IMG/VR virus record: IMGVR_UViG_3300045988_007995
Coordinates: 1 to 20,429 of that record
Strand: one strand, 5' to 3'
Length of the DNA: 20,429 bases
From: a virus
Taxonomy: Duplodnaviria; Heunggongvirae; Uroviricota; Caudoviricetes
Position numbers and translations under genes: made by a program. Shown piece after piece: positions 1,519 to 11,244 of the stretch (positions are counted from its first letter, which is position 1; the number at the start of each line of letters is the position of its first letter). The notes under the pieces were generated by a model. That model saw nothing but the letters and a program-made list of their open reading frames with translations, made no database searches and was not told the DNA's origin.

Positions 1519-1581
1519 AACCATTTGCGGTAATATTTTATCTCTAGCGGTGTTGACGAAAATACCTCCGGCGGTGATACT
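1519..1581 (+). promoter_or_regulatory. Lambda-type OL3-OL2-OL1 operator triplet overlapping a PL-like sigma70 promoter (rightward in this window)
   Basis: Three 17-bp sites AACCATTTGCGGTAATA (1519-1535), TATCTCTAGCGGTGTTG (1539-1555), TACCTCCGGCGGTGATA (1563-1579) with 3-bp and 7-bp spacers; -35 TTGACG (1553-1558), 17-bp spacer, -10 GATACT (1576-1581). By recollection each operator differs from lambda OL3/OL2/OL1 at only 1-2 positions and the downstream transcript start region (acacatcagcaggacgc) is lambda-like. Confidence 0.8.
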
Positions 1582-1673: not shown

Positions 1674-1770
1674 ATCACCCAACCACATAAGCTGTGGGAT
1701 GCAATGCCGAAGCAACCGTCTCAGGAGGAGCTTCGAGATTGCATCACCAAAGTTTATTCGGGAGGAATCT

Positions 1771-2043
1771 ATGTCCAGAAAAACAGAATTTAAAGGCACC
1801 TCAGCTTCTCGTCGTAGAGCTCGTCGCGCAAACCTGCAAAGTCAGGAGGCGATTAGCTCCGACAAGCTACACAGACCAACCCCCTCTCGAGTGGTCTTGC
1901 AATGCAAGCGCAAACCAGCAATGAGAGCAGAAGTAATAACACTGACAACGTTGACCAGAAAATATGAAGGCTCAACTTGTCTTCCAAATGTAGCTCTTTA
2001 CGCGGCAGGCTACCGGAAATCCAAACAACTGACAGCAAGATGA
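1771..2043 (+). CDS. N: N-like transcription antitermination protein (arginine-rich motif)
   Basis: ATG at 1771 preceded by GGAGG (1761-1765); N-terminal arginine-rich motif GTSASRRRARRANLQSQ resembling the ARM of lambdoid N proteins; first gene downstream of PL and nutL. The longer ORF from 1699 lacks an RBS and overlaps the leader. Confidence 0.7.
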   Translation: MSRKTEFKGTSASRRRARRANLQSQEAISSDKLHRPTPSRVVLQCKRKPAMRAEVITLTTLTRKYEGSTCLPNVALYAAGYRKSKQLTAR

Positions 2044-2104: not shown

Positions 2105-2728
2105 ATGTCATCAATCCGCTTAACTACGAGAATGAAAGAGAAAATCGCTCGTAACGCTTTAATTAAATCTGGGGTTTTCACTGAGCTTGAAGAAGTAACA
2201 AAGTTAAAGAACCAGCTTGCACTTGACGCCAGAGTTGTTGCGTTTGGCGGTAAAAAGAAAACTGAGGAAGTGGATCAGTTATCATCCAAGTTAATGGCTA
2301 TAAGCGAAGAACTTGAAAAGCTGGGATGTTCATTTTACTCATGCGATGCCCGTTCAACTTCAATTTATCTGACTGTATCTGGCAGAAGGGTTGGCTGGTA
2401 TTCATATGGGAAAGACGGCAACGGCGAAGATATATTGCTCCCTACTCCGACCAAAGATAAATGCATGTTTAGCGCAGAACACGAAATAACAAAAAGGTTT
2501 GATGAAATCTGCGCATTGCAACAAAAACTTGAAGCCAAGAAAAAGGATATCGAATCAAATGTATGGGCTGCTTTGAACTCAGTCACAACAGTTAAGCGAC
2601 TTATTGAAGTTTGGCCTGAAAGCAAAGAGTTGCTACCAAAAGAAGCAGATAAAGCAAGTACAGCACTTCCTGCTTTACGGGTAGAAGATTTGAATAAGAT
2701 GATTGGACTTCCTTCCGAGGTCGCATAA
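2105..2728 (+). CDS. hypothetical 207-aa protein (AT-rich insert between N and the tL1-like terminators)
   Basis: ATG at 2105 preceded by GAGAGGAA; ORF-track frame 2045-2728; AT-rich by eye; occupies the lambda ral/sieB/ea10 interval but resembles none of them to my recollection. Confidence 0.6.
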   Translation: MSSIRLTTRMKEKIARNALIKSGVFTELEEVTKLKNQLALDARVVAFGGKKKTEEVDQLSSKLMAISEELEKLGCSFYSCDARSTSIYLTVSGRRVGWYSYGKDGNGEDILLPTPTKDKCMFSAEHEITKRFDEICALQQKLEAKKKDIESNVWAALNSVTTVKRLIEVWPESKELLPKEADKASTALPALRVEDLNKMIGLPSEVA

Positions 2729-2862: not shown

Positions 2863-2888
2863 GCCCTCCAGTGTGAGGGCCTTTTTAT
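2863..2888 (+). terminator. intrinsic terminator (first of a tandem pair, tL1-like)
   Basis: Hairpin GCCCTC-cagtgt-GAGGGC (2863-2880) followed by CTTTTTA. Confidence 0.65.
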
Positions 2889-2902
2889 ATGCATACCAAT
2901 AA

Positions 2903-2924
2903 CGCTTCACTCGAGGCGTTTTTC
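2903..2924 (+). terminator. intrinsic terminator (second of the tandem pair)
   Basis: Hairpin CGCTTC-actc-GAGGCG (2903-2918, one G-U pair) followed by TTTTT. Confidence 0.6.
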
Positions 2925-2949
2925 GTTATGTATAAATAAGGAGCACACC

Positions 2950-3090
2950 ATGCAATATGCCATTGCAGGGTGGCCTGTTGCTGGCTGCCCTTCCGAATCT
3001 TTACTTGAACGAATCACCCGTAAATTACGTGACGGATGGAAACGCCTTATCGACATACTTAATCAGCCAGGAGTCCCAAAGAATGGATAA
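2950..3090 (+). CDS. cIII: CIII (FtsH/HflB inhibitor), truncated to 46 aa relative to lambda
   Basis: ATG at 2950 after AAGGAG; product MQYAIAGWPVAGCPSESLLERITRKLRDGWKRLIDILNQPGVPKNG matches my recollection of the first 46 residues of lambda CIII (54 aa); TAA at 3088-3090 where lambda continues. Confidence 0.8.
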   Translation: MQYAIAGWPVAGCPSESLLERITRKLRDGWKRLIDILNQPGVPKNG

Positions 3091-3196
3091 AACACTTATG
3101 GCTATCCAGACTAAATTCACTATCGCCGCTTTTATTGGCGATGAAAAGATGTTTCGTGAGGCCGTCGAAGCCTACAGAAAATGGAGGTCAAAATGA
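3083..3196 (+). CDS. kil: Kil-like FtsZ-inhibiting peptide
   Basis: ATG at 3083 overlapping the end of cIII as in lambda; product MDKTLMAIQTKFTIAAFIGDEKMFREAVEAYRKW... closely matches my recollection of the lambda Kil N-terminus; TGA at 3194-3196 overlaps the next start. Confidence 0.7.
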   Translation: MDKTLMAIQTKFTIAAFIGDEKMFREAVEAYRKWRSK

Positions 3197-3381
3197 TTCC
3201 GGTAGAACTGGCGAAAACTCCAGAGTTAAGTCGATTAAAAAGAGAATATCACATTGCTGAGGCTCGTTACTGGCGTAAAGCGGGAGATAAATCAAAGAAA
3301 CAACTTTGCTTATGGCAGGCACAAAGAGAGCGCATGAATGAGCGTGAGTTTCTTTCCTCCCCATCCGAATTACCATTCTGA
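3193..3381 (+). CDS. hypothetical small protein (62 aa)
   Basis: ATG at 3193 preceded by GGAGG (3183-3187); ATGA overlap with kil stop; sits where lambda has gam but is unrelated by eye. Confidence 0.5.
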   Translation: MIPVELAKTPELSRLKREYHIAEARYWRKAGDKSKKQLCLWQAQRERMNEREFLSSPSELPF

Positions 3382-3389
3382 GGCAAATT

Positions 3390-4070
3390 ATGGGAACTGC
3401 GACATTAATACTCGGTGAATCTGGCACCGGAAAATCAACCAGCATGAGAAATATCAATCCAGAGGAAGCAATACTTATAAAACCAATAGGCAAGCCGCTT
3501 CCATTTAAATCAAAAGACTGGCTGGCATGGGATGCCAGAGCAAAAAAAGGAACCGTAGTTACCACTGACAAATGGGACGTAATAGTTGCCGTAATTAAGC
3601 GTGCTCACGAATACGGGAAAAGAATCGTTATTGTTGATGACTTCCAGTATGTGATGAGCAATGAGTTTATGCGCCGCTCAGAAGAAAAATCGTTTGATAA
3701 ATTCACTGAGATAGGCCGCCACGCATGGGAGGTGATTAAGGCTGCACAGGATGCACCTGATGACCTGAGAGTCTATTTTCTCGCACACACCGAAGAAACC
3801 CCTATGGGGCGTGTGAAAATGAAGACTATCGGCAAAATGCTGGACGAGAAAATCACTGTCGAAGGCATGTTTACTATAGTTCTTCGCACCCTTACCCGCG
3901 ATGACCAGTTCTTTTTCACCACGAAAAACAACGGTGCAGACACTGTTAAATCCCCAATAGGAATGTTTGATTCCAATGAGATTGATAACGATCTCTCTTT
4001 CGTCGATGCCACTGTTTGTGATTACTACGGCATCAATAATGTTCATCAAATTAAGGAAAACGCCGCATGA
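3390..4070 (+). CDS. P-loop ATPase, Sak4-like / RecA-family recombination protein
   Basis: Walker A GESGTGKST near the N-terminus and Walker B-like RIVIVDD; about 226 aa; located where lambdoid phages carry the recombination module; AT-rich by eye. Confidence 0.7.
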   Translation: MGTATLILGESGTGKSTSMRNINPEEAILIKPIGKPLPFKSKDWLAWDARAKKGTVVTTDKWDVIVAVIKRAHEYGKRIVIVDDFQYVMSNEFMRRSEEKSFDKFTEIGRHAWEVIKAAQDAPDDLRVYFLAHTEETPMGRVKMKTIGKMLDEKITVEGMFTIVLRTLTRDDQFFFTTKNNGADTVKSPIGMFDSNEIDNDLSFVDATVCDYYGINNVHQIKENAA

Positions 4071-4677: not shown

Positions 4678-4974
4678 ATGCCAGCGCCTCTGTATGGTGC
4701 GGATGACCCGCGCAACTGCTCCGGTAGCTCCAAGGCGGAGGTGCTGGAGAATATCAAAAACAATTTCGACGCGTTTCTTGCTCTGACACCAGAAACAAAA
4801 GCAGAACGGATGTACCGACGCGATATACAACTCGCGCTAAAACAGGAGAAGGACCGAACAAACGAAACAGCAATGAGACCGTTGCGAAAAGCGACAATAG
4901 ACAAATTCCCTGAATATATCGACCCGCGCCTGCGTAATTACCGCTCACGTTATGGTGCTATCAGTAATGACTGA
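4678..4974 (+). CDS. hypothetical protein (98 aa)
   Basis: ORF in series with flanking plus-strand genes; weak RBS; no recognisable motif. Confidence 0.45.
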
Positions 4975-10153: not shown

Positions 10154-10486
10154 TTATTTCGGTAGATTGTGTTTGGCATTCGACTCGTCTATCACGTAAC
10201 GCATTGCAGTTCGACCGAGATTACCAGGATCTTCATGCAGACTCACTCGTGCCTTTAGGAGCACACATTCAGCCTTGACATAGTTTGCTGGAATTATTCC
10301 TACCTCGGCATTTTTAAATGCCTCCTTCACCGCCTCACCGTTGTACTGACCGCCAAGCAACTCTGTACATGTCAGGTTGTTATGGATAATTGCAAGGAGA
10401 TCTTTAATCTCTTCACGCAGGTTTACAATCGCCATCGCGGCATTGATAGCTGCGGCATAGCGCTCAGCTGCAGTCTTCTCTTTCAT
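10154..10486 (-). CDS. hypothetical 110-aa protein (opposite-strand insert gene A)
   Basis: Minus-strand ORF; start placed at MKEKTAAERY... (ATG complement at 10484-10486) preceded by AAGGTGA; the only long ORF in this interval on either strand. Confidence 0.55.
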   Translation of the reverse strand: MKEKTAAERYAAAINAAMAIVNLREEIKDLLAIIHNNLTCTELLGGQYNGEAVKEAFKNAEVGIIPANYVKAECVLLKARVSLHEDPGNLGRTAMRYVIDESNAKHNLPK

Positions 10487-10498
10487 GATTTTCACCTT

Positions 10499-10525
10499 AA
10501 AAAAATGCCCGGCGAATCGGCGGGC
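10499..10525 (-). promoter_or_regulatory. conserved hairpin plus T7 tract directly upstream of gene A RBS (copy 1 of duplicated 5' element)
   Basis: Minus strand reads GCCCGCCGATTCGCCGGGCATTTTTTTAAGGTGAAAATCATG; terminator-like stem GCCCG/CGGGC then U-tract, immediately followed by the RBS. Confidence 0.5.
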
Positions 10526-10530
10526 TGATT

Positions 10531-10542
10531 GTGACATGTCAC
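10531..10542. repeat. palindrome GTGACATGTCAC (copy 3), 4 nt downstream of the gene B stop codon
   Basis: Exact 12-bp palindrome in context CTGaTTGTGACATGTCACGGcGTTA. Confidence 0.9.
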
Positions 10543-10546
10543 GGCG

Positions 10547-10969
10547 TTAGAAGGTTATTTTATCGAATGCGGCGTTGATTGCCTTGGCGTCCTGCTCAGC
10601 ACCAACCACATCAAGTAAAGATCTTTTACTAAGCACTTCAGCCAGGCATTGTAACTTCATGTTGTATAAGTTTTCGCGCATGTAATCATCATCACTTTTT
10701 TCTTTGGCGTATACAGCGCGAGAAATATCAAACACATTGCCTTTTTCCATTTCAGTTTTCTGCGCTGAAATCCAGTCATGGCAAGTAACTCCTATTCCAT
10801 GGTCATCGCTAAGCGTTAACCCGGCAAGTCGCTCACCTGGAATTGCTTCACAAAGCATTTCATTTCCTGCAAAAACACCATAAAAAATTGAGTCATCACC
10901 CTGAACAATGCGTACATATTTGCACGGCCATTCATTTAGATATTTAGCTAGCATGTCGGCTGTTTTCAT
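10547..10969 (-). CDS. hypothetical 140-aa protein (opposite-strand insert gene B)
   Basis: Minus-strand ORF; start placed at MKTADMLAKY... (ATG complement at 10967-10969) preceded by TAGGTGA; upstream ORF-track extension crosses the hairpin/T-tract and is rejected. Confidence 0.55.
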   Translation of the reverse strand: MKTADMLAKYLNEWPCKYVRIVQGDDSIFYGVFAGNEMLCEAIPGERLAGLTLSDDHGIGVTCHDWISAQKTEMEKGNVFDISRAVYAKEKSDDDYMRENLYNMKLQCLAEVLSKRSLLDVVGAEQDAKAINAAFDKITF

Positions 10970-10979
10970 GATCTCACCT

Positions 10980-11005
10980 AAAAAAAATGCCCGGCGAATC
11001 GGGCG
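10980..11005 (-). promoter_or_regulatory. conserved hairpin plus T8 tract directly upstream of gene B RBS (copy 2 of duplicated 5' element)
   Basis: Minus strand reads CGCCCGATTCGCCGGGCATTTTTTTTAGGTGAGATCATG; about 40 nt alignable with copy 1. Confidence 0.5.
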
Positions 11006-11045
11006 AACTGGAAGCAATGAGTTATGCCTTCCGTGGCTGTACTGG

Positions 11046-11085
11046 TTTACAGCATGAAGCCATCGCAATGGCGTCATGCTGTAAA
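11046..11085. repeat. 40-bp near-perfect nested palindrome
   Basis: TTTACAGCATGA-aGCCATcgcaATGGCg-TCATGCTGTAAA: 12-bp outer arms with a 5-bp inner dyad. Confidence 0.85.
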
Positions 11086-11124
11086 AAGGGCGGTGATAGT
11101 CCTTCAAGGGAAACCATCACCGCC
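11083..11124 (-). terminator. minus-strand terminator 43 nt downstream of the tRNA
   Basis: 9-bp stem GGCGGTGAT/ATCACCGCC with 18-nt loop, followed on the minus strand by CTTTTT. Confidence 0.5.
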
Positions 11125-11167: not shown

Positions 11168-11244
11168 TGGCGTGGCATGCAGGATTCGAACCTGCGACCA
11201 ACCGCTTAGAAAGCGGTTGCTCTGTCCAGCTGAGCTAATGCCAC
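11168..11244 (-). tRNA. tRNA-Arg (anticodon UCU), phage-encoded
   Basis: 77-nt cloverleaf on the minus strand: acceptor GTGGCAT/ATGCCAC, D-stem GCTC/GAGC, anticodon stem ACCGC/GCGGT with loop TT-TCT-AA, T-stem GCAGG/CCTGC with TTCGAAT loop, discriminator G and encoded CCA. Confidence 0.85.

Follow-up and report, generated by a model that had tools for sequence, protein, structure and literature searches.

Does a cIII gene that ends eight codons before that of phage lambda represent a damaged lysogeny gene or an ordinary allele? The question is raised by the early-left (pL) operon of the window, that is, the whole stretch of 20,429 nucleotides of phage DNA analysed here. From the sequence alone, the first-pass annotation had described an apparent nonsense truncation of cIII in this operon, coupled to a Gln-to-Lys change at position 3 of the Kil protein, which is encoded in the overlapping frame. 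The best explanation, held with considerable confidence, is that the short cIII-kil allele of the window is ordinary and functional, ancient and common. The allele is regarded as ordinary because it is old, widespread and already annotated, and because it keeps all parts of both proteins that are known to matter.

The window contains a lambdoid early-left operon with the gene order N - Nmad5 - cIII - kil - hkaM - Sak4 (Table 1). The position of cIII is the one expected for the family, in the early-left operon, 3' of N, and directly 5' of and overlapping kil. The two terminator-like hairpins 5' of cIII sit where the annotation of HK620 places tL2A and tL2B. Following kil, the window has an hkaM-like ORF and a Sak4-like ATPase instead of the gam-bet-exo genes found at this place in lambda. 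The hkaM-like ORF matched no family in the Pfam search, and homologues of the ATPase are labelled 'DNA binding ATPase' or 'Sak4-like ssDNA annealing protein' in JEP4 and HK620. The ORF between N and cIII gives a full-length match to the Pfam family Nmad5 ('nucleotide modification associated domain 5', E 4e-71) and occupies the slot of the ea10/ral/sieB-type accessory genes of lambda.

Table 1. Features of the early-left operon and adjoining genes, in window coordinates.
Feature	Position	Strand	Basis
pL-like promoter	1553-1581		Sequence scan
N antiterminator ORF	1699-2043		Pfam N_peptide
Nmad5-domain ORF, between N and cIII	2105-2728	+	Pfam
Two terminator-like hairpins, 2863-2880 and 2901-2920	2863-2920	+	T run after each
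cIII 5' RNA thermoregulator	2937-2995	+	Rfam RF01804 Lambda_thermo
cIII, 46 codons and TAA, short allele of the FtsH-inhibitor CIII	2950-3090	+	ORF, Pfam Lambda_CIII
AGGAG, likely kil Shine-Dalgarno	3069-3073	+	Read from sequence; function inferred
cIII/kil overlap, 8 nt, ATGGATAA (kil start codon and cIII stop codon)	3083-3090	+	
Single polymorphic base, A (lambda C)	3089	+	Lambda alignment
kil, 37 codons and TGA, short HK620/HK629-type, Lys3 and Ala16	3083-3196	+	Pfam Lambda_Kil
hkaM-like 62-aa ORF, start overlapping the kil stop (ATGA)	3193-3381	+	Homologous to HK620 hkaM and ST64T orf-66
Sak4-like ATPase, HK620 hkaL homologue	3390-4070	+	Pfam AAA_24, 29.8 bits
P22-type Abc2 anti-RecBCD protein	4678-4974		

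Nucleotide alignment with lambda traces the difference to one base, which is A in the window and C in lambda (junction GGATAAAAC and GGATCAAAC, respectively). In the cIII frame, TCA (Ser47) becomes TAA at 3088-3090 and CIII has 46 residues compared to 54; in the kil frame, CAA (Gln3) becomes AAA (Lys3). Both the stop at cIII codon 47 and Kil Q3K are thus due to a single C-to-A difference. Apart from this base, window and lambda are the same base for base from 20 bases 5' of the cIII start codon through the stop. Since lambda has TCA, translation of its CIII proceeds through 8 further codons (SNTYGYPD). The resulting overlap with kil is 32 nt, compared to 8 nt in the window as well as in HK620, HK629, epsilon34, ST64T, NM-3 and PSP2-22. 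The cIII stop falls on the kil start in the window, compared to 24 nt past it in lambda.

The factual core of the first-pass annotation was borne out by these comparisons. Translation of the ORF confirmed a TAA after ...GVPKNG and a CIII of 46 residues, the interval 2950-3196 runs exactly from the cIII start to the kil stop, and the continuation of lambda cIII for 8 residues was found in the alignment together with the CAA-to-AAA change in kil codon 3. In the alignment of the two cIII/kil regions the stop positions differ and the window is not identical to lambda. Of the term 'nonsense truncation', only the formal part survives: one base shortens CIII by 8 residues relative to lambda, but the reading as a damaging mutation is not supported for an allele that is shared, makes up 18% of the copies in E. 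coli and is conserved in Salmonella phages. The wording is correct as a formal comparison with lambda but biologically misleading.

The short protein (MQYAIAGWPVAGCPSESLLERITRKLRDGWKRLIDILNQPGVPKNG*, 46 aa) is 100% identical to residues 1-46 of lambda CIII, and LLERI is common to both. It matches the Pfam family Lambda_CIII (PF02061) with 106.1 bits (cutoff 25.7) over the entire profile (1-42/42; residues 2-43). As cited by Kobiler et al. (PMC1838920), the mapping by Kornitzer (1991) defined residues 14-37 of lambda CIII as essential and sufficient, with S17, R24, L26, R27 and R32 being critical; a CIII-GFP fusion protein is still active. This segment with all five residues is present in the 46-aa form. 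By analogy with the domain mapping in lambda, CIII-46 would have normal activity: its amphipathic helix (residues 14-37) would competitively inhibit the FtsH protease, so that CII would be stabilised. As the conserved CIII domain and the amphipathic helix are kept, CIII-46 should still promote lysogeny. Annotated CIII homologues vary in length from 41 to 54 aa and have nothing in common beyond NQPG.

The regulatory region is retained as well. The window matches RF01804 over its full length (1-59/59) with 88.5 bits (gathering score 50, E 9.6e-21), an element that spans the ribosome-binding site and the start codon of cIII; the specialised translation-control element of the gene is therefore intact. 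NCBIfam gave no match for the short or long CIII or for Kil at E values up to 0.01, and the peptides may be too short for its models. The protein cluster at 90% identity that holds CIII also includes 122-aa 'DUF2528 family' proteins and a 113-aa hypothetical protein, which suggests alternative ORF calls or fusions with cIII sequence in some E. coli prophages.

The short cIII allele is already known, annotated, common and conserved. The junction AATGGATAAA was found in the phages HK620, HK629, JEP4, Stx2_EH0505 and TL-2011a. The RefSeq record of HK620 carries the note 'protein shorter than similar proteins due internal stop codon' on CIII, and the CDS coordinates of JEP4 yield the same 46-aa protein. 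Among 124 listed copies (119 IMG/VR stretches, four GenBank phages and the window), 34 have A and 90 have C. Of 1355 copies located in complete E. coli genomes with allele-specific 30-mers, 248 (18%, spread over 220 genomes) have the TAA junction of the short allele and 1107 (82%, in 942 genomes) the TCA junction of the long one. Among the matches listed, the genes carry the names CIII and Kil whichever form is present. The exact 46-aa CIII is present on at least 1000 public contigs under the NCBI name CIII and the exact 37-aa Kil on about 999 under the name Kil.

These population data bear directly on the idea of a private loss-of-function mutation, in which a nonsense change inactivated cIII in this one phage or prophage and Kil Q3K was collateral. 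Such an event is highly improbable. The change is formally nonsense relative to lambda, and a cIII that is otherwise nucleotide-identical to the lambda gene could look like the recent target of a point mutation. As a private event, however, it is refuted by the number of independent carriers. Besides the E. coli genomes and contigs just mentioned, at least 15 local haplotypes carry the A allele, both kinds of recombinant with the short and long kil 3' ends occur, and the exact window haplotype (lambda-identical cIII, A and short kil) is found in 2 other contigs. A loss of function is further disfavoured by the complete Pfam domain and RNA thermoregulator, and by the absence of frameshifts or earlier cIII stops among the A copies of the 124 listed, whereas a few C copies have such lesions. 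That base 3089 was misread or misassembled can be dismissed with near certainty, given that the identical base appears in hundreds of independent records and is co-inherited with the downstream short-kil haplotype.

More distant relatives indicate how long the short form has existed. The Salmonella P22-like phages epsilon34, ST64T, NM-3, PSP2-22 and ST-32 carry a diverged cassette (approximately 70% nucleotide identity) with the same junction AATGGATAAA, so that their CIII ends in ...NQPGVPCNG* and their Kil begins with MDK. All 17 further diverged junction variants, 12 of them from Salmonella-type IMG/VR contigs and 5 from E. coli, have A, and the C allele was not seen in the Salmonella lineage, as sampled by the five named phages and the 12 IMG/VR contigs. 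The A in every diverged variant, the Salmonella lineage included, also speaks against a private mutation. In the part of cIII outside the kil overlap, comparison of the window with epsilon34 and ST64T gave a pS of 0.70-0.76, which is saturated, and a pN of 0.12-0.15; omega is about 0.06 for cIII and about 0.10-0.14 for kil, values that are based on about 30 codons only. Synonymous saturation combined with low pN means that the short CIII has long been kept as a protein, with the stop codon conserved alongside, and the low omega between short alleles is hard to reconcile with a loss of function. On these sequence comparisons, the short cIII form is old and under purifying selection, which provides indirect support for FtsH inhibition by the 46-aa form.

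The same phages suggest a direction for the change. For the near-identical cIII genes of lambda and the window, the Salmonella lineage serves as outgroup, and by parsimony TAA/Lys3 is then the ancestral state and TCA/Gln3 of lambda a stop-loss. As judged from this one outgroup lineage, the 54-aa CIII of lambda is probably a derived form that reads 8 more codons into kil, although the junction might in principle have been transferred between lineages by recombination. The first-pass annotation had taken the lambda state as the original one, a polarity that is most likely reversed.

A scan of genome contigs by Kil alignment was discarded as evidence on polarity. Almost all of its 20 matches were lambda-identical contigs in unrelated taxa and hence uninformative. 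Lambda-identical cIII-kil turned up in assemblies labelled Shewanella, Pseudomonas, Neobacillus, Oceanobacillus, Bradyrhizobium, Kitasatospora, Enterococcus and others, often on contigs of about 48.4-48.5 kb or on tiny contigs with roughly 1x coverage; these almost certainly represent contamination with lambda control DNA.

The second consequence of the polymorphic base concerns Kil. The window protein (MDKTLMAIQTKFTIAAFIGDEKMFREAVEAYRKWRSK*, 37 aa) is of the short HK620/HK629 type, compared to 47 aa for lambda Kil, a point absent from the first-pass annotation. It matches the Pfam family Lambda_Kil (PF06301) with 74.2 bits (cutoff 27.6; profile 1-31/31 over residues 2-32) and is 95% identical to Kil of HK620/HK629 and 81% identical to that of lambda. 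The helix-turn-helix core defined by Naha et al. (2025; PMC11762379) appears to be retained in its sequence (helix 1, residues 4-18; turn, G19-D20; helix 2 from residue 21), and G19-D20 together with 19 invariant columns are common to the aligned Kil proteins of the window, lambda, HK620 and epsilon34. In that study, the division block by lambda Kil persisted upon removal of the N-terminal 5 or the C-terminal 11 residues, and HK629 Kil', which comprises residues 6-37 of the short Kil and hence lacks residue 3, disrupted Z rings and blocked division in a ZipA-dependent manner (PMC11762379). HK629 Kil' differs from the window protein by 2 substitutions. Residue 3 lies in a dispensable segment, since lambda Kil without its first 5 residues still blocks division. 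By extension from these proteins, Kil-K3 would have normal activity, and the 37-aa Kil of the window is expected to transiently block FtsZ ring assembly through ZipA via its helix-turn-helix core.

Two further observations concern the annotation and variability of kil. At position 3128, in kil codon 16, the window has Ala16, compared to Thr16 in lambda, HK620 and most short Kil peptides; the Ala16 form is common, as its exact peptide is found on about 999 contigs and in 6 sampled viral contigs. The kil frame is open back through cIII, which creates a 79-aa ORF (2957-3196). This ORF was rejected as a real product because the ST-32 homologue has several stops in the frame and because the Pfam Kil match covers the last 37 residues only. 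In the HK629 record (NC_019711.1; 408-647 of the compared stretch), a 79-aa ORF is annotated as Kil and cIII is left without annotation; the 79-aa 'Kil' is probably an annotation artefact, as judged from the frame.

The preferred reading of an ordinary short allele can be summarised mechanistically as follows. The allele belongs to the pL operon of a temperate phage or prophage of E. coli whose structural genes are of the phiV10/epsilon15 type. The TAA that ends cIII after 46 codons lies at the kil start (ATGGATAA), and the polymorphic base within it also sets Lys3 of Kil.

An alternative to equivalent alleles is that the short one is functionally distinct and kept by selection. The 8-nt overlap, compared to 32 nt, might alter the translational coupling between kil and cIII, or loss of the tail might alter the turnover of CIII by FtsH, so that TAA and TCA would tune the lysis-lysogeny decision or the output in filamentation. 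We consider this unlikely, even though both forms persist and recombine onto both kil backgrounds. A role for coupling is suggested by the 4-32 nt by which cIII overlaps the next gene in all homologues examined. The AGGAG motif, 9 nt 5' of the kil ATG and inside cIII codons Pro40-Val42, is a likely Shine-Dalgarno sequence of kil, and the Salmonella-type junctions have retained CCAGGAGT despite saturation at other synonymous sites. A role in turnover would fit with CIII being itself a substrate of FtsH, as stated in PMC1838920. On the other side, there is strong linkage of the A allele with the short kil 3' end and the hkaM/Sak4 module, so the frequency of A may do no more than follow that of the module. 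Furthermore, the tail SNTYGYPD is just the region for the conserved Kil N-terminus translated in the alternative frame, and other CIII homologues show no protein conservation of it. Slightly more doubtful still is the combined proposal that the 54-aa CIII is derived and the 46-aa form ancestral and that both are kept as a functional polymorphism, acting via coupling or FtsH-dependent half-life and tuning lysogenisation and filamentation.

Comparison with known phages places the window allele in a familiar series. Closest is the cIII-kil-hkaM-hkaL (Sak4) cassette of HK620 and HK629, which has the junction AATGGATAAA, a 46-aa CIII and a 37-aa Kil ending in RSK, followed by an ATGA overlap with hkaM and a Sak4-like ATPase, all as in the window; over a 551-bp region the nucleotide identity is 96.7%. 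A few residues differ: HK620 CIII has Val36 where the window, which is the same as lambda 5' of the polymorphic base, has Ile36, and Kil of HK620/HK629 has Thr16 and Ile28 instead of Ala16 and Val28. The structural genes of the window also differ, being phiV10/epsilon15-like rather than P22-like or lambda-like. Lambda shares with the window CIII residues 1-46, the Rfam thermoregulator, the pL position 3' of N and the helix-turn-helix core of Kil, and differs in Gln3 and in a different Kil C-terminus that is 10 residues longer. The C3-Kil-Orf66 arrangement of the epsilon34, ST64T and ES18 type has the 8-nt overlap, a 37-aa Kil starting with MDK and a following hkaM/orf-66 homologue, like the window; the N-terminus of CIII in epsilon34/ST64T-type phages is 2 residues longer than in the window, and their downstream recombinase is Erf-type, unlike that of the window. 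The Sak4-like recombination module travels with the short kil.

Beyond the operon, the window is a mosaic. The lambdoid pL operon with its HK620/P22-type recombination module (Sak4-like ATPase, Abc2) continues directly into genes for Ea22-like and DUF551 proteins, which lie beyond Abc2, and then into phiV10/epsilon15-like terminase, portal and capsid genes; from about 5.3 kb on, the identity to genes of phiV10/epsilon15-like podophages is 97-98%. In the phage and E. coli record collections, no single record covers more than 68% of the window in one place. On the plus strand 5' of the pL-like promoter (107-1326), two ORFs stand where lambda has rexA/rexB, with a strong terminator (1340-1361) behind them. 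One (97 aa) matches DUF6932 near the threshold and the other (309 aa) matches no Pfam family; they are candidates for prophage-expressed accessory or defence genes. A tRNA-Arg (anticodon TCT; 11168-11244, minus strand) lies within the otherwise plus-strand late/structural region, beside two ORFs on the minus strand (10154-10537 and 10547-11107), neither of which matches a Pfam family.

As a discovery, the short allele is of little significance. Its recognition guards against calling a damaged lysogeny gene where there is none, because annotators and readers who compare with lambda may take the common 46-aa CIII to be truncated. The HK629 record, with cIII omitted and a spurious ORF named Kil, illustrates the problem. 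The overlap of cIII and kil would be a convenient natural system for studying one base constrained in two reading frames. As a minor evolutionary point, it is the reference phage lambda that probably carries the derived, extended CIII.
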